Source: Candidatus Methylomirabilales bacterium (GTDB taxonomy: Bacteria; Methylomirabilota; Methylomirabilia; Methylomirabilales; CSP1-5). Taken from it: a stretch of 64,000 bases of DNA. The DNA lies in assembly GCA_046758505.1 (NCBI GenBank), contig JBHIAH010000001.1, positions 32,001-96,000 of the forward strand, in the 5' to 3' direction. Made by a program: the position numbers and the translations under genes. Under the pieces are notes generated by a model. That model was given only the letters and a program-made list of their open reading frames with translations, was not told where the DNA came from and searched no databases. How positions within the stretch are numbered: the stretch's first letter is position 1; every line of letters begins with the position of its first letter. This document shows, one piece after another, positions 13,131-42,680 of this stretch.

Positions 13131-13682
13131 CTACCTCACGGGGAGGCCGACCGCCTGCCCGGCTGCCCTGAGCGCCTGGAGGGCCCGGCGCCGGTCAGCC
13201 CCCTTGGTCTCCGCCTCGACGACTCCCTCGAGGGCTTCCCGGTCGACCGTCCCGGATAGAGCGGCAGCGGCGGCGGCGACCGGGAGGGCCGGGTCAATCC
13301 CGAACTGCTCCGCGACGCCTGTGAGGTCGGCGACCGCAACCCGGGCCCGGGTATTCAGATCCACCGCACCGGTGCTGTTGACCAGGAGGACTCCAGTGTC
13401 CTTGAGGCCCGCGGTGACATCGACCTCTTTCACGAGGCTGGCATCGGTCACCGCGACCAGGTCCAGGACGTATTCCTGCGAGTAGGTCTCGATCGGCTCC
13501 GTGGCCACCCGGAGGTGCGCCGCCTCGGGTGTGTAGCCCCGCAGGAAAAGCCAGGGGGGGCGCAACTGCGCCTGTTTCCCCTCGGCCAGGGCAGCCTGCG
13601 CTAAAAGCCGTGCGGCCTCGATGAAGGAAGCCAGATGGTCGTATCGGGGCAGCCGGCGCCCGTGGAAGCGAAGCTCTTTCAT
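13131..13682 (-). CDS. 2-oxoacid:acceptor oxidoreductase gamma subunit-like (divergent)
   Basis: MKELRFHGR start, AHLRVATEPI, GLKDTGVLLVNS; follows the alpha and beta genes. Confidence 0.75.
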   Translation of the reverse strand: MKELRFHGRRLPRYDHLASFIEAARLLAQAALAEGKQAQLRPPWLFLRGYTPEAAHLRVATEPIETYSQEYVLDLVAVTDASLVKEVDVTAGLKDTGVLLVNSTGAVDLNTRARVAVADLTGVAEQFGIDPALPVAAAAAALSGTVDREALEGVVEAETKGADRRRALQALRAAGQAVGLPVR

Positions 13683-14560
13683 CGGCCGGCCCCCCAGCTT
13701 TCATCCACCCGCCGCTGGAGGAGTTGGATCTCCCGGGGCGTAAGTCGTGTAAATCGCCGCTGGAGTCCCACGTACTCCGTGACCGGCCTGCGCCGCTTCG
13801 GCCGGTAGGTGAGCCTCATTCGGCCCTGTTCGACTTCGTACAACATCCACATCCCCGTCTCGACGGCCGCCCGGGCGACCTCCATCGTCTCCGCATGGGG
13901 ATAGCCCCACGAAATCGGACACGGGGTGAGGACATGCAGGTAGCGGAAGCCCCGGATCCGGGCTGCCCGGCGAAGCTTCGTGCGATAGTCCTCCAGGTGA
14001 GACACGGCGGCCGTGGCCACGTAGGGAACGCCATGCGCCGCCATGATGCGCGGCAAATCCTTTTTTAGCGTGGGGACACCGCCGGGAGTCGTCGGGGTCC
14101 GAGCCCCGGTCGGCGAGCTCGCGGTGCCCTGGCCCTGGGTGTTCATGGCCACTTCATTGTCGTAGCAGACATACAGGATGTTTTCGTTCCGGCTCGCCGC
14201 CCCGGAGAGGGCCTGAAATCCGATGTCGACGGTCCCGGAATCTCCGGCGAAGCAGACGACGTGCACGTCCCGCATCCCGCGGGCATCATAGGCATGTCGC
14301 AGGCCGGTCGCCGCCGCCGGCGCACTCTCGAAGATCCAGTGGACGAAGGGTACCTTCCACGACGCGCTGCTGTACGAGAGGCTGAAGGTGGCCGCACAGC
14401 TCGCCGGACTGATCACGGCCATCTTCGGCCCCAGGATCTCGGCCAGGAGGTCTGCCGTGGGGAGGGCCCCACACCCCTCGCAGGCCGTCCCCTTCATCAC
14501 CGGCGGCAGGCTGAAACGTCGCGAGCGGGGGATAGTCGGAAGCGGTCTGGTTGCTGGCAT
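13679..14560 (-). CDS. 2-oxoacid:ferredoxin oxidoreductase beta subunit (TPP-binding)
   Basis: ACEGCG, AGDSGTVDIGFQALSGA, YDNEVAMNTQGQ, YVATA, PCPISWG. Confidence 0.9.
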   Translation of the reverse strand: MPATRPLPTIPRSRRFSLPPVMKGTACEGCGALPTADLLAEILGPKMAVISPASCAATFSLSYSSASWKVPFVHWIFESAPAAATGLRHAYDARGMRDVHVVCFAGDSGTVDIGFQALSGAASRNENILYVCYDNEVAMNTQGQGTASSPTGARTPTTPGGVPTLKKDLPRIMAAHGVPYVATAAVSHLEDYRTKLRRAARIRGFRYLHVLTPCPISWGYPHAETMEVARAAVETGMWMLYEVEQGRMRLTYRPKRRRPVTEYVGLQRRFTRLTPREIQLLQRRVDESWGAGR

Positions 14561-14572
14561 GCGGATCCCTCC

Positions 14573-15802
14573 CTATCCGGCCCGGGCGAGGGGCCGGGCC
14601 TGGGGCGATTCGTCGCGTACGCGCGCCCGGTCAAGGCCGAGCCAGTCGATGGCGTCTTCCTCTCTGTCAAACGGGGGCTCTCGCTTGAGCACCCTGCGGG
14701 TGACTTCCATTACCTGGCGGACCGTCACATCCCGCCCCCCGAGGCCGGCGATGACCCCGACGATCCGCGGCGGCTCGGGGGCGCCGTACAGGGCCGACCG
14801 GATCTCCTCGTACAGAACTCCATGGCTCCCGGTAGCACAATTCCGATCGACGGCGATGACCACCTCCGCCCCCCGAATCGCCTCCCGAATCGCCTCCGTT
14901 GGGAAGGGCCGGTAGGCGCGGATCTTGAGGAGGCTCGCGGACACCCCCTCGGCCTGGAGCTCCCGCACCGCCCGGCGCGCCATCTTGGCGATCGATCCCA
15001 TGCAGGCCAGCACGGTGCGCCCGGCAGGTTCGGTCGTCTCGATGAGTCCGCGGGACTCGCCTCCGACAGCCTCGGCATATGCCCCGCCGACCTCGGGGAT
15101 GACGTCGAGGGCCGCCTCCATGGCCTGATGCTCGGCGAACTTGAATTCGGTGTACCACTCCGGAGGTGTCGGGGGGTTCAGGGAACGTGGCTTTGAGGGA
15201 TCGAGCAATGCCTCGACGTGAGGGCGTCCGAGAAATCGGTCCACCGCCCTGGCGTCGGGCACCATGACCCCCTCGGCAGTGTTCGAGTGGATAAAGGACT
15301 CGTAACAGAACATACCGGGCAGCCGCACCCGCGAGTCTTCGCAGATCTTGAAGAGCTGAATCCCCGTCTCGAGAACCTCCTGCGCGTCCTCGCAAAAGAG
15401 CTGGATCCACCCCGCCCGGTTCACCGCCAGGGCATCGTTGTGATCCGCGTACCGGCTGTGCGGGACCGAGATGGCCCGATTGACTACCGCCATCACGACG
15501 GGGCACCGGCCGCCCGAGGCGGTGTAGAGGTGCTCGGCCATGAAGAGGAGACCCTGAGAGTTCGTCGCGGTAAAAACCCGGCTTCCGCCCAGCGAGGCCC
15601 CCACGGCGGCGGCCATGGCGGCGTAATCTGATTCCATGTTGATGAATTCAGACTCGAGCAATCCCGACTCGACATCTCCGGCGATGACCCCGAGCATGGG
15701 GGATTGGGGGGTAATGGGATAGATCGGAATCACCTGGGGCTTCGAGAAACGTACCGCCCGGGCCGCCGTCTCGTTGCCGGTGAGAAGCTCTACCCTTCCC
15801 AT
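14573..15802 (-). CDS. 2-oxoacid:ferredoxin oxidoreductase alpha subunit
   Basis: Likely start MGRVELLTGNETAA at 15802 (the ORF track overextends to 16549); YPITPQS, TATNSQGL, VNRA. Confidence 0.9.
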   Translation of the reverse strand: MGRVELLTGNETAARAVRFSKPQVIPIYPITPQSPMLGVIAGDVESGLLESEFINMESDYAAMAAAVGASLGGSRVFTATNSQGLLFMAEHLYTASGGRCPVVMAVVNRAISVPHSRYADHNDALAVNRAGWIQLFCEDAQEVLETGIQLFKICEDSRVRLPGMFCYESFIHSNTAEGVMVPDARAVDRFLGRPHVEALLDPSKPRSLNPPTPPEWYTEFKFAEHQAMEAALDVIPEVGGAYAEAVGGESRGLIETTEPAGRTVLACMGSIAKMARRAVRELQAEGVSASLLKIRAYRPFPTEAIREAIRGAEVVIAVDRNCATGSHGVLYEEIRSALYGAPEPPRIVGVIAGLGGRDVTVRQVMEVTRRVLKREPPFDREEDAIDWLGLDRARVRDESPQARPLARAG

Positions 15803-16479
15803 CTCTTCTCCTCCATCTCCTCGTCCTCCCTCGCCTTGAGGTGGGCGAGGAGTGTCTCCTTCTTGCGGTGCACATGTTCCGCCACCAACCGTTCGGCCTG
15901 CTCCGGGTCCCGGTCCTTGATCGCCTGGAGGATCGCCCAGTGCTCCTGTAACCATTGCTTCCGGGCCCGGCCGACCTCCAGGGTGATCCGCCGGTAGCGT
16001 AGAATCTTGTCGTGGATCACCTGGAGGAGCTGCTGCAGCTGCGCGCTGCCGCTCAGGGCGTTGAGGCCGTCGTGAAACCGGGTGTTCCAACTCAAGAGTC
16101 GCTCGGGAGCTTCTGTGCCCACCAAGGCCTCGGATCGCCTCAGGACCTCCTCGACCTTCGCGATCCCCTCGGGCGTCGCCCGCTCGGCCGCCAGGCGGGC
16201 CGCGAAGCCCTCGAGCACCGCTCGGATGCGAAAGGTCTCCTCCACCTCCTCGAGCGACATCTCGCTCACGACCAGGCTGCTTCCCGGTCCCTTGGAGAGA
16301 AAGCCCTCCGCCTCGAGCCGTCGCATCGCCTCGCGGATCGGCGTCCGGCTGATTCCGAGGCGGCCGGCCAGCTCGGTCTCCACAATTCGAATCCCGGGGG
16401 CGAGTTCTCCACGGACGATGGCCTGACGGAGGGTGTCGTACACTTCTTCGCGCAGTGGACGGGGGACCTGGATTTTCAC
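15790..16479 (-). CDS. GntR family (FCD domain) transcriptional regulator
   Basis: LREEVYDTLRQAIVRGELAPG..ETELAGRLGISRTPIREA; FCD motifs R..LE, N.RFH, EH..I..AI...D. Confidence 0.95.
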   Translation of the reverse strand: MKIQVPRPLREEVYDTLRQAIVRGELAPGIRIVETELAGRLGISRTPIREAMRRLEAEGFLSKGPGSSLVVSEMSLEEVEETFRIRAVLEGFAARLAAERATPEGIAKVEEVLRRSEALVGTEAPERLLSWNTRFHDGLNALSGSAQLQQLLQVIHDKILRYRRITLEVGRARKQWLQEHWAILQAIKDRDPEQAERLVAEHVHRKKETLLAHLKAREDEEMEEKRWEG

Positions 16480-16512
16480 GGTGGGCCCCTGAGTGGAGGT
16501 ATTCGAAGATAA

Positions 16513-16536
16513 CTGTATACTGGATACAGTATACAG
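16513..16536. promoter_or_regulatory. Perfect palindromic operator upstream of gntR
   Basis: CTGTATACTG-GATA-CAGTATACAG (10-bp perfect inverted repeat); minus-strand TTGACA at 16544-16549. Confidence 0.75.
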
Positions 16537-16692
16537 ACGTGGCTGTCAATAGGAAAAAAGAAGTGGACCGGAGGTTCGAGTGGCCTCCGGTCCGAGACGC
16601 GACGGCATGCCAGGTTGCTTCAGGCAGAACGCAGACGAATGTCCTAACAAATCCTCTGGCGGGTCAAGGTTGCGGAGCGGTGGCTCGCTTCC

Positions 16693-17367: not shown

Positions 17368-17457
17368 ATCGAAGGGGATCTCGATAGCCTCTCTCCTTCA
17401 AGATAGGGCCTCGGGGGCGGGCCTCTGACCCAAAGGGGAGCCCCCATTTTCTTTTTG
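17368..17457 (+). ncRNA. Candidate sigma-54-dependent small RNA (~90 nt)
   Basis: Starts ~12 nt after the -12 box; stem GAAGGGGA...TCTCCTTC, then GGGGGC...GCCCCC followed by ATTTTCTTTTT. Confidence 0.45.
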
Positions 17458-17695
17458 TCTCACCCGCCGACTTTCCCCCCCCTCCTGAATAAAAAAGGAA
17501 ACAGACTACTTTAATCTACAACATCATCTTGAGAGTAAAAGTCATATTCATACCTTATTCACCATGCATGCGTCGGGAAAGCACGAATAGCCCACGTAAC
17601 ATGAATGCCTGCTCACCCGTGCCAAGCCTTGGTGCAACCCCCAGGAACCTCTCCCTTGTTTCTGCCTAGCAAAGTCCCAGAAAGCCTCCTCCCCG

Positions 17696-18030
17696 AAAAA
17701 AAGAAAGCCCCGATGAAGCCTGCGGTCGGTGCCGAAGCTGCCGGACCGCCCCGCCGGTGAAAGCGGGACCATCGGGGCCGGTGGTGCCTGGGCCTTCCCA
17801 GGCAGCCACCCTGAGTTGTTACGGGTGCGCTGGCCTAGGAGGCCACCACCTCACAGATCACCATACATATTTCCACGACTGGATCACCTCCTCTCTCGGC
17901 GCACCCCACATCACGGGCCCAGTTCCCGTCAGCCCGAAACCGACCGCCGAAGTCGGCCTCGGACCTGGTCCGCCCTTGCCTGCCCCATTACAGGCGAGAA
18001 CGCGAAGGGGCCTGTGTCCACCCCAACCGC
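17696..18030 (-). ncRNA. Candidate large structured RNA with a 16S-3'-end-complementary loop and micro-ORF; no family recognised
   Basis: Own promoter; at least six hairpins including two cUUCGg motifs; 9-bp closing stem plus U-tract; AGGAGGUGAUCCAG in a loop. Confidence 0.65.
17835..17876 (-). CDS. Putative 13-aa micro-ORF MEICMVICEVVAS
   Basis: GTG...TAG, 14 codons, 10 nt after GGAGG within an extended Shine-Dalgarno sequence. Confidence 0.35.
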   Translation of the reverse strand: MEICMVICEVVAS

Positions 18031-18035
18031 GCCGC

Positions 18036-18064
18036 ATCATAGTGCACTTGATCCAACCTGTCCA
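18036..18064 (-). promoter_or_regulatory. Sigma-70-type promoter for the structured RNA
   Basis: TGGACA (18064-18059), 17 bp, TATGAT (18041-18036); A-rich tract upstream on the minus strand. Confidence 0.7.
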
Positions 18065-18412: not shown

Positions 18413-19432
18413 ATGGACGTCACAACGGATACGGTGGCGCGTCAGGAAGTTGTCACGGCGCTCTGCCGCCTGGGTCTCCTGGACTCGGGCGAGACGCCGC
18501 CCATGACCGCGCTCCGGGGCGGCGTGTCGTCGGACATCTGGCGTGTGGAACTCCCCCGAGGCCCCGTGTGCGTCAAGCGCGCGCTGCCGCGGCTCAAGGT
18601 CGAGGCGGTGTGGGAGGCGCCGGTAGAGCGTAACGCCTCGGAGTGCGCCTGGATCGAAACAGTCGCCGCGCTCTATCCGGATGCGGTCCCCCAGGTCATC
18701 GCCCACGACGCGGAGGCTGGCTTGTTCGTCATGAGCTATCTCGACCCCGTCGATTATCCGCTGTGGAAACGACGGCTCAGCGAGGGGGATGCCGATACGA
18801 CGTTCGCCCGCCGCGTGGGCGCGACCCTGGCCGGCATCCACCGCGCCACGGCGGGCGATACCGGCCTGGCGGCGCGTTTTTCGACCGACGAGTTCTTTTA
18901 CGCCCTCCGGCTCGAGCCCTACCTTGTCGCCACCGGCCGGCGCCATCCGGATCTTTCGGCGGACCTCCAGACCCTGGTTACCGCCACGGCCGGGGTGAAA
19001 CGTGCCCTGGTGCACGGAGACATCAGCCCCAAGAACATCCTGATCGGGCCCCGCGGGCCGGTGTTTCTCGACGCAGAATGCGCCTGGTACGGCGACCCCG
19101 CCTTCGACCTCGCCTTCTGCCTCAACCACTTTCTTTTGAAATGCCTGTGGACGCCCCACGCCGCACAGCGTTTCCTGGCGTGTTTTACCGCTATGGCCGA
19201 AGTCTATCTTTCCGCCGCCGACTGGGAGCCAACGGCCGAACTCGAGGCGCGAGTCGCCCGGCTCCTCCCCGCCCTCTTCCTCGCCCGCGTTGACGGCAAG
19301 TCGCCGGTCGAGTACCTCACCGGCGAGTGCGACAAGGATCGGGTCCGCCGCGTGGCGCGGCCCCTGATTGCGGCGGCGCCCGGACGGCTTGAATCGGTGC
19401 GTGCCGCCTGGGCGAAGGAAATCGGGCCGTGA
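18413..19432 (+). CDS. Aminoglycoside phosphotransferase/methylthioribose kinase-like phosphotransferase
   Basis: GGVSS P-loop, CVKRAL, HGDISPKNIL, FLDAECAWYGDPAFD. Confidence 0.88.
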   Translation: MDVTTDTVARQEVVTALCRLGLLDSGETPPMTALRGGVSSDIWRVELPRGPVCVKRALPRLKVEAVWEAPVERNASECAWIETVAALYPDAVPQVIAHDAEAGLFVMSYLDPVDYPLWKRRLSEGDADTTFARRVGATLAGIHRATAGDTGLAARFSTDEFFYALRLEPYLVATGRRHPDLSADLQTLVTATAGVKRALVHGDISPKNILIGPRGPVFLDAECAWYGDPAFDLAFCLNHFLLKCLWTPHAAQRFLACFTAMAEVYLSAADWEPTAELEARVARLLPALFLARVDGKSPVEYLTGECDKDRVRRVARPLIAAAPGRLESVRAAWAKEIGP

Positions 19433-20721
19433 CGCAGACCGAGATCGTCGCCCTGACTGGCCGTCGGGTCTGGGATTCGCGGGGCCGACCAACGGTCGAA
19501 GCCGAGGTGCGGCTCGCCGGTGGTGCGACGGGCCGCGCGATTGCCCCTGCCGGTGCATCGACCGGGTCGGGTGAGGCGGTGGACCTGCGGGATGGCGGTC
19601 CGCGCCTCGGCGGCACCGACGTCCGCCGCGCGGTCTCTCACGTGAGCGGCGAGATCGCGACTGCACTCACAGGCCTGGATGCCGCCGACCAGGCGGGCAT
19701 TGACCGCGCCCTTATCGATCTCGACGGCACGCCGAACAAGGGCCGGCTTGGGGGCAACGCCCTCGTCGCCACGTCCATGGCGGTCGCCAACGGCGCGGCG
19801 GCGGCGGCAGGCCAGCCGCTCTGGCGGTACCTCGTGGGCGAGCGTAAGGCGGTCCTGCCCCTCCCGGAAATCCAGATCTTCGGCGGCGGGGCCCATGCCG
19901 GCCGGTCCATGGACATCCAGGACTTCATGGTCGTCGCTCCAGGCGCCGGCAGCTTCGACGAGGCGCTCGCGTGGACCGCCGAGGTCTATCACACGGCGGG
20001 GGCACTCATGGCCGAGGCTGGCCGCTTTTACGGAGTCGCCGACGAGGGCGGCTTTTGGCCCGCCTTTTCCACGAACGGGGAGCCGCTCGAGATGCTCGTC
20101 CGTGCCATCGAGGGCGCCGGCTTTACGCCTGGCGAGGAGGTTGCAATTTCCCTCGACGTTGCCGCCTCAGAGCTCGGCAAGGGCCGACGCTACCGGCTCG
20201 GCCTCGAGAGCCGCGAGCTCGACAGTGACGGCCTCGCGGAGCTCCTCATCGGCTGGCTCCACCGGTATCCCATCGTGTCGATCGAAGACCCGCTGGCCGA
20301 GGACGACGAAGAGGGCTGGGTGCACTTCACCCGGGCGGTCGGCGACCGCGTCCAGATCGTCGGCGACGACCTGCTGGTCACCAGTGCCGGCCGCGTGCGC
20401 CGGGCGGCAGAGCGAGGCGCGGGCAATGCGGCCTTACTCAAGCCCAACCAGGCTGGGACCTTGACCGAGACCCGGATGGCCCACGCCGCGGCCTGCGAGG
20501 CCGGGTGGGGCACCATCCTCTCGGCCCGCTCGGGCGAGAGCGAGGACGTTACCATCGTGCACCTCGCCGTGGGCTGGGGCGTCCGCCAGCTCAAGGTGGG
20601 GGCATTTGCCCGCTCCGAGCGTATGGCCAAGTGGAACGAAGCCCTCCGCATCGAGGAGGCGCTGGGCCCCGCAGCCCGCTTCGCCGGCGGCGACGTCTTT
20701 CGCAGTACGGGTCGAGGCTGA
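19429..20721 (+). CDS. eno: Enolase-family protein (divergent enolase paralogue)
   Basis: DSRGRPTVE, PAGASTG, DEGG, DVAASE, SIEDP, VGDDL, LLKPNQ, SARSGESED, RSERMAKWN; GTGA overlap with the kinase. Confidence 0.88.
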   Translation: MTQTEIVALTGRRVWDSRGRPTVEAEVRLAGGATGRAIAPAGASTGSGEAVDLRDGGPRLGGTDVRRAVSHVSGEIATALTGLDAADQAGIDRALIDLDGTPNKGRLGGNALVATSMAVANGAAAAAGQPLWRYLVGERKAVLPLPEIQIFGGGAHAGRSMDIQDFMVVAPGAGSFDEALAWTAEVYHTAGALMAEAGRFYGVADEGGFWPAFSTNGEPLEMLVRAIEGAGFTPGEEVAISLDVAASELGKGRRYRLGLESRELDSDGLAELLIGWLHRYPIVSIEDPLAEDDEEGWVHFTRAVGDRVQIVGDDLLVTSAGRVRRAAERGAGNAALLKPNQAGTLTETRMAHAAACEAGWGTILSARSGESEDVTIVHLAVGWGVRQLKVGAFARSERMAKWNEALRIEEALGPAARFAGGDVFRSTGRG

Positions 20722-38929: not shown

Positions 38930-39662
38930 CTGTCCATCTCCTTTCATTAAAGGACAACGCCTTTACAACCTCAGATACAGGTTCCCCTGCGTTTTGCCTC
39001 CGTGGCTATCTGGCCACCTCCTCTCTGCAACGCACAACGCATTCACAACCTCCCCGGGCCTCGTCCCGGTTCCCTCGCCGATGGTCCGGCGGAAATGCGG
39101 ACGAGCCGATCGGCTCGATATAACACCTCCGGCGCGACCGTGACCCCACGGCCAAAGGTCGTAATGGCTTGCGCCTCGGGCCACATCCTGCCAGAAGCTC
39201 ATCGACCCTGGACCGCCTGGAGGAGGACCATCTTTACCGGTGAGGCGCCCCGCGGTAATTCAGTTCTCTGCTTGGTTCCCTTCTCAAAAGGAAAACGCCC
39301 TCCGGGCCGTGCTTCGCCCGAGAAGGCGTCTGGGTGCTTGGTGCGCCAACGATTGTGCCCTAGGTGGGCTAAGGACTGTGCCTATCCCGGTTCCATTAGT
39401 AGTACCCGGTGGCAGCTAAGGGTTGATAGCTGAGTGATCTCTTTACCGACCAACCATGCCACGACCCAAGGATCGCTACGAGAGCCAAGATACTATGACT
39501 TAGGTCAGACGTTTGTCTGATCTAAATCATCCTATATCCAAAGGGCGTACCCCCCGTCAAGCCCAAACTGAGGGGGAAAGGGGGACGTTCTACCTTTTCG
39601 TTCGCAAATACGCTCGTTCTGAATCTTGTCTAACCTGAGACGATTCCCGTCGGTGCAGCTTG

Positions 39663-41582: not shown

Positions 41583-42680
41583 CTAGCGGGAGCCCCGAGG
41601 GGGGCGCCGGATCCTGACGCGGGGCGCGATCTGCGTCCAGATCCGGGGATCTTCCTGACCGATCACCCATGCGGAAAAGCCCCGAAGCTTATACGCGTGG
41701 ACCAGCTCGAGCTTGGCTTGAAAGCTCCGGACGTCCTCGTACCAGACCTCATGTTCCACCCCGTCAGCCTGGAAGCGGAACCAGGGGACCTGCCGGACCG
41801 CATCCCATCCCGCCACAACACCGGAACGGTGAAGCATCGGCACGACCTCCGGAAAGCCGCCGTAGCCACCCCGACCCCCCTCGCTATTCCAGCTCCGAAA
41901 GTACAGGGGGATTCCCAACGAGAGCTTTGCGGCCGGGACCTCGCCGACCGCATACGCGAGGACCCGCTCCATCCACGGCACGCCCGCCACCGGTCCGGGA
42001 GGGGTGACCCCGCTGTGCTGGTCATAAGTCATCACCGAGAGGAAGTCCGCCGCCCGGGACAGGGTGGCATAGTCGAAGACCCCGGCCCAGTGAGCCCAGG
42101 AGGATTCGGAATAATCCTCGGGACGATCCGAGTGCTTGGCCACCACCGCCACGCTCAGCTTACGCCCCCGCCGGTGAAACTGCCGCGCAACCTCCTCGAC
42201 AAAGAGGTTATAGCGATGCCGATACGACGCATGGATATTCTCGAAGTCCAACTGGATACCCCAGTAGCCATCCCGAGTGGTGTAATACAGCAGATATCGG
42301 ATGGCGCGCTGCATCTTGGAGGGATCGTCGAGGACCGCATGGATCACCTCCTGGTTAAAACCTGGATTGATGACCAGGGGCATCACCGCAACCCGTTGCT
42401 CGCGGGCAGCCTTCAGCAGCTCCGGGTTGACCTCTCCAAAGACAAAACCCTCTCGGTCCATCACGAAGACCTGGGGGGCGATGATGCTGATCCGATTCAG
42501 ATGGGTGAGCGCCGAGACGAGCGCCGGGGGTCTTTCCACATAGTAGAAGAGGGTGGCGGCACGGGAGCGAGCCAGGAGCGGGACCGGCAGCGTGACGAGG
42601 ATGATCCCGATAAGGGGAAAAACCGCGGCCCTGATTCCCCTGCTCCTGAAACAGGCCCGGGACTTTCGTGGGCTCCCCAT
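41583..42680 (-). CDS. Glycoside hydrolase family 18 protein
   Basis: Signal/TM segment, GIQLDFE, VMTYDQH, LGIPLY, VWYED, GFSAW. Confidence 0.88.
   Translation of the reverse strand: MGSPRKSRACFRSRGIRAAVFPLIGIILVTLPVPLLARSRAATLFYYVERPPALVSALTHLNRISIIAPQVFVMDREGFVFGEVNPELLKAAREQRVAVMPLVINPGFNQEVIHAVLDDPSKMQRAIRYLLYYTTRDGYWGIQLDFENIHASYRHRYNLFVEEVARQFHRRGRKLSVAVVAKHSDRPEDYSESSWAHWAGVFDYATLSRAADFLSVMTYDQHSGVTPPGPVAGVPWMERVLAYAVGEVPAAKLSLGIPLYFRSWNSEGGRGGYGGFPEVVPMLHRSGVVAGWDAVRQVPWFRFQADGVEHEVWYEDVRSFQAKLELVHAYKLRGFSAWVIGQEDPRIWTQIAPRVRIRRPPRGSR

Follow-up and report, generated by a model that had tools for sequence, protein, structure and literature searches.

Introduction

Among the bacterial small mRNAs with an extended Shine-Dalgarno (SD) sequence is rreB of Bradyrhizobium, a 165-nucleotide (nt) stand-alone mRNA that has a promoter and a terminator of its own (Hahn et al., RNA Biol 2017; PMC5711450). 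According to that report, 17 nt of rreB, including the first base of its GTG start codon, are complementary to the 3' end of the 16S ribosomal RNA (rRNA), and the small open reading frame (sORF) has 14 codons. The present study concerns an RNA that, judged by analogy of design, is of the same kind. It is predicted on the minus strand of a 64,000-nt stretch of the genome of a Candidatus Methylomirabilales bacterium (GCA_046758505.1, contig JBHIAH010000001.1, positions 32,001 to 96,000), which is called the window below, and all coordinates are positions within this window.

The rreB transcript co-sediments with 30S subunits in a manner that depends on the 5' part of its long SD, occurs mainly in the ribosome pellet and the 30S peak, and is translated very weakly, and changing its GUG start codon to UAG extends its half-life from 10 to 37 min (PMC5711450). 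That paper places rreB-like genes (rreR and others) in Alphaproteobacteria only. Two Rfam families are also relevant. Transcription of Ms_IGR-5 (RF02471, "Actinobacteria sRNA") has been validated in S. lividans and S. avermitilis (PMC8079986, PMC8780764), and homologues carry ribosome footprints in M. abscessus and M. smegmatis (PMC4974804). CC2171 (RF01867) is expressed in Caulobacter and Methylorubrum extorquens, with its function given as unknown (bioRxiv 10.1101/2022.01.24.477521). A literature search, which had most subscription journals outside its reach, returned no publication that links Ms_IGR-5 to rreB.

An original prediction, made from the sequence alone, had described the locus as a stand-alone structured RNA other than transfer-messenger RNA (tmRNA), RNase P, signal recognition particle or 6S RNA, which carries a 14-nt complement of the 16S 3' end and a micro-ORF and possibly represents an undescribed class. 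Its promoter, terminator, 16S complement and 13-codon frame, the second SD-like GAGGUG inside the frame and the hairpin over the stop codon are all present, and relatives have them too. The class, however, has been described before, as set out in the following section.

Relation to described families

When thresholds are relaxed, the RF02471 model aligns over its whole length (1-184 of 184) to 17701-17901, with 35 bits and E = 5e-6 against a gathering cut-off of 45 bits. In the whole genome this match is the sole credible copy (32 bits, E = 1.7e-5). At gathering cut-offs no Rfam family is found in the 64-kb window, and ARAGORN reports no tRNA or tmRNA gene there, the tRNA-like domain and tag ORF of a tmRNA being absent, which agrees with the exclusion of known stand-alone RNAs by the original prediction. 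The model rises above its cut-off in 24 of 151 genomes of a sample of the phylum (all of them from three genera of the window's order, 50-84 bits), and in the window's genus it scores 25-32 bits. Two actinobacterial loci reach 172.7 and 98.5 bits, and loci from Methylomirabilis, Zixibacteria and Polarisedimenticolia 67.7, 55.9 and 51.6 bits; five more loci stay below the cut-off, and no Rfam family other than RF02471 matches any of these named loci. Sub-threshold matches to RF02471 also occur in two control genomes, those of Caulobacter vibrioides, where the match is probably CC2171, and of Thermus thermophilus.

On the evidence of these alignments, the RNA is a 5'-extended, diverged and sub-threshold relative of Ms_IGR-5. 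The suggestion of an undescribed class thus fails, also in view of the rreB/rreR mRNAs as Hahn et al. describe them (PMC5711450). An Rfam match, named in the original prediction as the finding that would remove the novelty, exists in substance: that of the window is sub-threshold and those of sister genera pass.

Shared with Ms_IGR-5 are the 5' GGAGGUG(A/G)UCC (SD1), a micro-ORF that ends in GAG-GUG, three codons and a stop, the hairpin in the stop region, the CAG-N-CACC strand, a three-way terminator that includes an inner hairpin and a loop with GUCC or CACC, and the presence of one copy per genome. Unlike Ms_IGR-5, the RNAs of the window's clade have about 130 extra 5' nt, which form three hairpins and separate SD1 from the promoter. 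In canonical members the alignment begins at the start of the model, with ACAC about 10 nt before the SD, whereas the ACACAG of the window lies in the loop of hairpin P1; the RNA is not predicted to begin with an ACAC about 10 nt ahead of SD1, as its conserved promoter lies about 130 nt further upstream and contigs from RNA libraries span the 5' domain and SD1. Moreover, the start codon stands 3 nt past the complementarity instead of overlapping it, and the host belongs to a diderm phylum, not to Actinomycetota.

With rreB and rreR the locus shares a stand-alone transcript with its own promoter and terminator, a conserved secondary structure, a conserved sORF, a genomic context that varies between lineages and, in the cited text, a lack of known function (PMC5711450). 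Complementarity to the 16S rRNA covers 16-17 nt in rreB/rreR, the entire free 3' end, and 14 nt exactly, or 18 nt with one G.U pair, in the window. The sORFs of rreB/rreR have 14-18 codons, a GTG start and a UAG or UAA stop, compared with 13 codons here, and the 165 nt of rreB contrast with about 320 nt; the likeness is judged by design. In rreB-like genes the last complementary base is the first base of the start codon; in the window, GTG follows 3 nt after CCAG, whereas it overlaps the complementarity (CCAGTG) in the sister genera g8 and g6.

The consensus of CC2171 begins with ...GAAAGGAGGUGAUCCAGUG, the same giant SD overlapping a GUG start. The window scores only 13.3 bits on this model against a cut-off of 75, and in a true Methylobacterium member of the family (84.3 bits) the frame is 24 codons long, GAGGUG is absent at 9 nt before the stop and the RNA folds differently. 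CC2171 is therefore of the same kind as the window RNA, but not of the same family.

Pairing of SD1 with the 16S rRNA

The exact 14-nt complement of the 16S 3' end, AGGAGGTGATCCAG, lies at 17892-17879 on the minus strand, within SD1. The 16S 3' end was not found in the window's own genome assembly, so pairing was computed against the 16S rRNA of a genome of the same genus, which ends in ...CTGGATCACCTCCTTTCT (longer form, ...GCGGCTGGATCACCTCCTTTCT). The duplex has 18 consecutive pairs, one of them G.U, and a predicted energy of -32.7 kcal/mol, compared with -8.7 kcal/mol for GGAGG alone. SD1 is the strongest duplex site for the 16S tail in the window, and GGAGGTG[A/G]TCCAG is invariant across all family members seen.

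Another SD1-like stretch, AGAGAGGAGGTGGCCAG, at 39010-39030 on the minus strand (-28.1 kcal/mol to the 16S tail), is intergenic and about 65 nt ahead of a gene whose start lies near 38947; at normal spacing it has no start codon after it. Very long SDs also precede ordinary genes, such as AGGAGGTGATCC at 42341-42351 (-), right before an ATG. A BLAST search of plasmids, with 33 nt from the 5' end of a sister RNA as the query, found 391 records, most of which match just the 18-nt reverse complement of the 16S 3' end and are probably antisense rRNA genes.

A reading frame under selection

The spacing of GAG-GUG, three more codons and a stop (TAG, TGA or TAA) was found in all but one of the 72 loci read as genuine that are described below, the exception, L146, having its stop one codon later. 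The frame itself was assessed in 111 sequences (the window, relatives and named loci) from which L146 and eight loci read as chance matches had been removed beforehand, and in which a stop 15 nt after GAG was the condition of entry; they contain 84 distinct SD-to-stop sequences. A start codon 7-13 nt past GGAGG and in the GAG-GTG frame is present in 84/84, compared with 12/84 and 1/84 for the other two frames. Frame length ranges from 12 to 17 codons, and the first 4-9 codons vary freely. The starts are GTG (39), ATG (23) and TTG (22), and the stops TAG (72), TGA (7) and TAA (5). Differences in length, within and between clades, are always multiples of three. Because the in-frame start is universal and insertions and deletions come in threes, the frame is, by this comparative evidence, under selection and kept for translation.

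The 3' half of the frame as a folding hub

Three long-range pairings would join the 3' half of the frame and the 5' domain to the rest of the RNA. GGUGGU of the second SD-like element (SD2) can pair with ACCACC at 17780-17785, the P1 loop sequence CACAG with CUGUG, and GGUGA with UCACC in the loop of hairpin L. In the case of P1, the ACACAG loop (18012-18017) faces CUGUG at 17852-17856 and is 94% paired in the clade, with no compensatory change. All three pairings are invariant in the window's clade and thus uninformative there.

Across clades, the SD2 pairing changes in step: GGUGGCUGUC pairs with GACAGCCACC, GGUGAUUG with CAGUCACC or CAAUCGCC, and GGUGUCC with GGACACC. When SD2 and the following codons were paired with CAG-N-CACC at an energy-chosen target site, cognate duplexes had a mean of -15.95 kcal/mol against -12.71 for non-cognate ones and were better in 45 of 46 distinct combinations, and the observed mean was reached by none of 2000 permutations. 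Partition functions give this helix a median predicted probability of 0.97 in 75 RNAs. The base ahead of GUGAGG likewise tends to match the base after the 5' CAC (CACG/CGUG, CACA/UGUG, CACC/GGUG); the match occurs in 44 of 62 combinations, a number attained by 4 of 2000 permutations, and there is one double compensatory change, CAGC with GCUG. Lastly, GGAC-N of the frame tends to match N'-GUCC of loop L (51/79 combinations, 0/2000 permutations). The raw table for the GUCC loop has 22 of 35 paired, with several sites mis-picked automatically, and manual reading gives 23/35. A first, crude duplex test of frame segments against the whole 3' domain was weak, with 76/110 for SD2 and 67/110 for the 5' element.

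The Rfam consensus of Ms_IGR-5 differs in that it pairs the 3' half of SD1 with the end of the frame and leaves CAG-N-CACC single-stranded; the data presented here favour the SD2-CACC helix. A strand-exchange switch was also considered, in which the 16S tail frees the frame end from SD1 for re-pairing with CACC. It is not favoured, the SD1-frame-end helix having a median probability of 0 in the 75 RNAs. Blocking SD1 in silico raises the SD2-CACC probability in 18 of these RNAs and lowers it in 8, and the SD1-frame-end helix is predicted (0.64-0.88) in truncated RNAs of the window's clade only. Taken together, the comparisons suggest that selection for translation maintains the reading frame and that its 3' half is under constraint at the RNA level.

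Conservation and distribution

Of 13 other genomes of the genus, 11 have a homologue of the RNA according to BLAST, and a second genus of the same family has it as well. In an alignment of 13 sequences (of which row L007 comes from an unpublished genome, and nothing depends on it alone), both promoter hexamers are kept in 12, with a variable spacer, the remaining sequence (L006) being cut off; almost no variation is seen in SD1, in the terminator or in the frame's 3' half. Four genomes of the genus (loci L011-L014 in G001, G003, G012 and G009) carry an insertion of about 100-140 nt between the stop-codon hairpin and hairpin J. Since its flanks stay conserved, the site after the stop-codon hairpin tolerates large inserts.

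The signature GGAGGTGRTCCAG-N10-40-TGAGGTG was sought in 135 genomes of the phylum that are at least 90% complete, four of them unpublished. It is present in 119, nearly always once, and the reversed-pattern control gives 0; among the genomes that also have at most 5% contamination, it is present in 94/104. The signature was not found in four small families (0/2, 0/1, 0/1 and 0/2 genomes). Named loci with the same variant of the RNA come from metagenome-assembled genomes titled Candidatus Rokuibacteriota or Methylomirabilia. In this phylum, which judging by these titles is probably Methylomirabilota/Rokubacteria, the gene is near-universal and single-copy.

A scan of GTDB species genomes returned at least 119 stretches, of which 80 loci were examined and 72 read as genuine. 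Going by record titles, the signature is found in 10 or more phyla besides this one. Among the matches listed, their record titles name Actinomycetota, Acidobacteriota, Rokubacteria/Methylomirabilota, Nitrospirota, Myxococcota, Thermodesulfobacteriota, Zixibacteria, Ignavibacteriales and Krumholzibacteriia. The other eight, including titles from Gemmatimonadetes, Verrucomicrobia, Nitrospinota and a Methanomicrobiales archaeon, were rejected as chance matches because of their sequence context.

Transcript and secondary structure

From the promoter and the terminator, a stand-alone transcript of about 310-335 nt is predicted (17696..18030, minus strand), with its 5' end somewhere within 18018-18030 and its 3' end within the U tract. 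The promoter, TGGACA-17-TATGAT (18064-18036), is of the sigma-70 type and matches the consensus at 10 of 12 positions; the 3-kb region has two promoter-like sites, compared with 0.6 +/- 0.8 in shuffled sequences. About 330 nt past it, a stem and U tract (17721-17696) follow, and a terminator scan also finds an intrinsic terminator here. The features of the RNA are listed in Table 1.

Table 1. Features of the predicted RNA and its promoter, in 5' to 3' order of the minus strand
Feature	Position	Strand	Basis or remarks
-35 hexamer TGGACA	18059..18064	-	Promoter scan; TGGACA or TAGACA kept in relatives
-10 hexamer TATGAT	18036..18041	-	Promoter scan; relatives' alignment
P1 hairpin, lineage-specific 5' domain	18007..18025	-	Both-side changes at 3/5 stem pairs
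P2 hairpin GCCUGU-AAUGGG-GCAGGC	17978..17995	-	Both-side changes at 4/6 pairs, 93% paired
P3 long hairpin, UUCG-type loop	17932..17964	-	Both-side changes at 7/12 pairs, 90% paired
Closing helix, 5' strand GGGUGCGC	17899..17906	-	Partner 17823-17830; 52% paired overall
SD1 AGAGAGGAGGUGAUCCAG	17879..17896	-	18 base pairs (one G.U) to last 18 nt of 16S rRNA
Micro-ORF GTG..TAG, 13 codons, MEICMVICEVVAS	17835..17876	-	Frame conservation
SD2 GAGGUGGUG, inside micro-ORF	17844..17852	-	GAG codon, then GUG, three more codons, stop
Stop-codon hairpin GGCC-UCCUA-GGCC	17832..17844	-	G-C to U-A in 7/17 sequences, 96% paired
Closing helix, 3' strand GCGCACCC	17823..17830	-	Alternative: CACCC with downstream GGGUG
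Hairpin J GCCUGG-GAAGGC-CCAGGC	17786..17803	-	99% paired, invariant
Anti-SD-like strand CACCACC, SD2 partner	17780..17786	-	Invariant in clade; covaries across clades
Terminator three-way junction	17706..17779	-	Stem K, 17769-17779 with 17706-17716; covariation and terminator scan
Hairpin L, loop UUUCACC	17750..17767	-	Terminator junction
Hairpin M, UUCG loop	17722..17749	-	Terminator junction
Terminator U tract	17696..17705	-	Sequence, terminator scan, relatives' alignment

The RNA folds better than 100 of 100 dinucleotide shuffles (z = -3.1). In 17 RNAs of the window's clade, 78 pairs were assessed by RNAalifold and covariation scoring, in which kinship was not modelled. In the tested structure 88.3% of cells are paired, against 34-46% with the partners slid; both sides change at 28 of the 78 pairs, and the covariation score was reached by 0/500 shuffles. 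Well supported in the clade are P2, P3, the stop-codon hairpin and the terminator three-way junction with hairpins L and M, and helices 10-12 of this junction have both-side changes at 5/11, 3/5 and 3/4 pairs. The hairpins of the original prediction (17934-17962, 17780-17810, 17749-17767 and 17722-17749) and its terminator stem thus found support, hairpin J (17780-17810) being invariant and hence uninformative on covariation.

The predicted 8-base-pair closing helix (17899-17906 with 17823-17830) fared less well, as it holds only in the window's own genus. Other lineages, judged by eye, seem to use a shifted register, and RNAalifold favours a downstream partner for CACCC (columns 233-236 with 252-255), both sides of which change in 7/17 sequences. 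Overlapping ORFs of 108-136 amino acids on both strands, those on the plus strand having 130 and 119 amino acids, were rejected as real genes; covariation across the region is of the RNA type, and a Pfam search of the two on the minus strand found no family.

Contigs from metatranscriptomes

None of the RNA runs searched contains the window's own sequence, and four metatranscriptomes have contigs of relatives. These are assembled contigs, 90-95% alike, from two studies and placed at a likeness of at least 85%. They cover only 17710-18018, that is, the predicted transcript alone, and missing cover outside 17695-18036 carries no weight. Both studies have contigs that run from 17833 to 18009-18018 and so connect the 5' domain with SD1 and the frame. 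In one run Illumina adapter sequence adjoins the ends of contigs, which lie at 17710 and 18018 plus 3 nt. Since such contigs give no strand, exact ends or level, the cover and the adapters hint at a discrete RNA of about 310 nt. Further contigs match just 17832-17862 and then continue into other AGGAGGTGGTCCAG sequences; these belong to further members of the family from the same samples.

Genomic context

The RNA sits inside a gene-free gap of about 1 kb. Divergent upstream neighbours are a kinase-like ORF (18413-19432, weak matches only) and then enolase (19429-20721); about 1.1 kb downstream on the same strand are 2-oxoacid:ferredoxin oxidoreductase genes (14573-16549 and 13679-14560, minus strand). 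The genes around the RNA vary from genus to genus, and in one sister genome a secretin and multihaem cytochromes lie beside the RNA. At L060 and L065 (G049 and G149), in the largest family of the phylum sample, a gene for an ABC-F type ATPase (ABC_tran_Xtn, ABC_tran_CTD) stands just upstream of the RNA, which is possibly local gene order only.

Right past the terminator, about 250 nt (17440-17690) have an unusually low G+C content of 0.48, compared with 0.6-0.7 around them; no ORF in this stretch is convincing, and runs such as GGAGGGGGGGG and AAAAAGAAAA occur in it. A palindrome, CTGTATACTGTATCCAGTATACAG (16513-16536, minus strand; 10 pairs by scan, G-T allowed), lies just upstream of the start of the oxidoreductase ORF (16549) and resembles an operator more than a terminator. 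One genome of the same genus has a gene for a GntR/FCD regulator between the RNA and the oxidoreductase genes.

Proposed mode of action

On balance, the RNA is probably a stand-alone, ribosome-docking micro-mRNA that is rarely translated and would serve as a sensor or timer of free 30S subunits and translation capacity, not as a vehicle for a peptide. In this model, the free 3' tail of the 16S rRNA in a 30S subunit would zip onto SD1, forming a duplex near -33 kcal/mol. Past the start codon, the variable part of the frame (its first 4-9 codons) would supply at least 13 unstructured nt, a figure judged by frame lengths of 12-17 codons and about as many as the mRNA channel of the ribosome holds. 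The folded core, made of the 3' half of the frame with the ACAC element, the CACC strand and the stop hairpin, would then be parked at the channel entrance, and the subunit could dock without unfolding it. Caught between an ultra-stable SD duplex and a structured block, ribosomes would initiate frequently and translate rarely, and a ribosome that does reach the stop codon would melt the whole core, which by analogy with rreB would couple translation to turnover of the RNA.

Several points weigh against this model. The model takes three of its elements from rreB by analogy, namely 30S binding, weak translation and decay coupled to translation. For rreB itself, 20-fold overproduction left growth unchanged, and its authors considered ribosomes far more numerous than the RNA and term its function "elusive" (PMC5711450). 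The window's RF02471 score lies under the gathering cut-off of that family. Long SDs are frequent in this genome: complementarity to the 16S tail is exact over at least 11 nt at 39 sites, a second exact 14-nt site stands ahead of an ordinary ATG, and the 11-mer GGAGGTGATCC occurs 10 times compared with 0 for its reversed control. The length of SD1, which the original prediction took to be far beyond an ordinary SD, is therefore extreme but not unique, and less exceptional than assumed; what distinguishes the site is its conservation across phyla, not its length alone. The helix of the Rfam consensus between the 3' half of SD1 and the frame end has 5 or 6 of 6 pairs in 29/39 combinations (its variable pair being A:U in 7, A:C in 1, G:C in 25 and G:U in 6), so that it is compatible with the sequences and SD1 may be partly masked.

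The long-range pairings have weaknesses of their own. Within the window's clade none of the three shows a compensatory change. Among 20 extra loci of the clade, GGUGA is changed to GGUGC or GGUGU in seven (L197-L203) with no compensation in the loop of hairpin L, and changes in the P1 loop or CUGUG are uncompensated in L201-L203 and L209. In the crude duplex test, the loop-L pairing gave no signal (47/110). In the SD2-CACC duplex test the energy-based choice of the target site came with 25 of 110 sequences dropped as mis-anchored, and the covariation tests across clades are not phylogeny-aware.

A wider proposal, which is tentative and should be regarded as rather doubtful, is that Ms_IGR-5, the 5'-extended form described here and perhaps the rre genes and CC2171 constitute one very widespread class of ribosome-bound regulatory RNAs in which the micro-ORF does not encode a functional peptide and is instead the moving part of a switch. 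The phyla concerned would include Actinomycetota, Acidobacteriota, Methylomirabilota, Nitrospirota and Myxococcota. A 30S subunit would be captured by the 18-base-pair duplex, with a pseudoknotted core at the mRNA entrance, and rare translation would melt the core and reset or destroy the RNA, so that the cell could read free 30S subunits or initiation capacity; the 5' domain, an addition made in the window's lineage, would supply the ACAC element from a hairpin loop.

Alternative explanations

An ordinary small-protein gene, in which the 13-residue peptide MEICMVICEVVAS is the product and the giant SD and the fold tune its synthesis, is an unlikely alternative. It would account for a frame that is open and in register in all 84 distinct sequences and for a peptide that is well kept within clades (the largest family of the phylum sample mostly has M-C-x-P-T-V-I-C-E-V-V-A-S), and Hahn et al. 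do read rreB and rreR as small protein genes (PMC5711450). However, clades with peptides such as LYSNRTREVAVR, VRIPLAIWTCEVIVT and MSSCSRPREVAEC share E-V alone, and these two residues correspond to the SD-like GAGGUG, a motif prescribed by the search pattern. The codon ahead of GAG varies as NGT, that is, in its first base (R, C, S, G), as expected of an RNA constraint on GUGAGGUG, and the last three codons covary with RNA partners. Synthetic RreB and RreR are, in the same report, unstructured (PMC5711450). The peptide is most likely a by-product, not the functional product.

That the RNA acts in trans as a base-pairing small RNA (sRNA) is quite unlikely. Its CACCACC and UUUCACC motifs would bind GGUG sites of target mRNAs, and the super-SD with its ribosome would stabilise it against 5' exonucleases, much as a strong 5' SD with a ribosome protects the hbs mRNA of B. 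subtilis from RNase J1 (PMC5737220). The 3' domain is indeed the best conserved structured part and carries these anti-SD-like CACC motifs, but the CACC strand is itself predicted to be paired with SD2 at the high probability given above. In rreB, moreover, the start codon destabilises the RNA (PMC5711450), and this reading would leave two features without explanation, the constant spacing of 9 nt between SD2 and the stop and the retention of the reading frame.

More improbable still is that the RNA stores 30S subunits or soaks them up stoichiometrically as a sponge. The original prediction had offered "30S sequestration or storage" under the heading of a ribosome-binding RNA or dedicated small-peptide transcript; this broader description fits the conserved core of 16S-tail pairing and micro-ORF, and the storage part, read as a bulk sponge, is the unlikely one. 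An 18-base-pair duplex would grip the 30S subunit very tightly, the sedimentation of rreB (PMC5711450) points the same way, and summed contig depths of relatives reach 117-440 in one metatranscriptome, a poor measure of expression. By analogy, however, the overproduction and the excess of ribosomes reported for rreB argue against bulk sequestration, a single-copy gene with a sigma-70-type promoter is unlikely to equal ribosome numbers, and a conserved frame and fold would be needless. A cis-acting leader or attenuator of the oxidoreductase genes, which lie downstream on the same strand in the window and in two other examined genomes of the genus, was already disfavoured and is highly improbable given the full intrinsic terminator with the ~1.1-kb gap after it, neighbours that are wholly different between genera and often include a convergent downstream gene, and RNA-library contigs that end at the terminator.

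Implications

Small mRNAs with a giant SD are single-copy and conserved in many phyla, and in the papers cited here they are described as expressed and ribosome-bound, with a function that those papers give as unknown. To these, the present analysis adds a phylum in which the gene is near-universal, a 5'-extended variant that the Rfam model misses, and comparative evidence suggesting that translation is what maintains the frame, whose 3' half is at the same time subject to constraint as RNA. With this, the question moves from the role of the peptide to what the ribosome does to the RNA.

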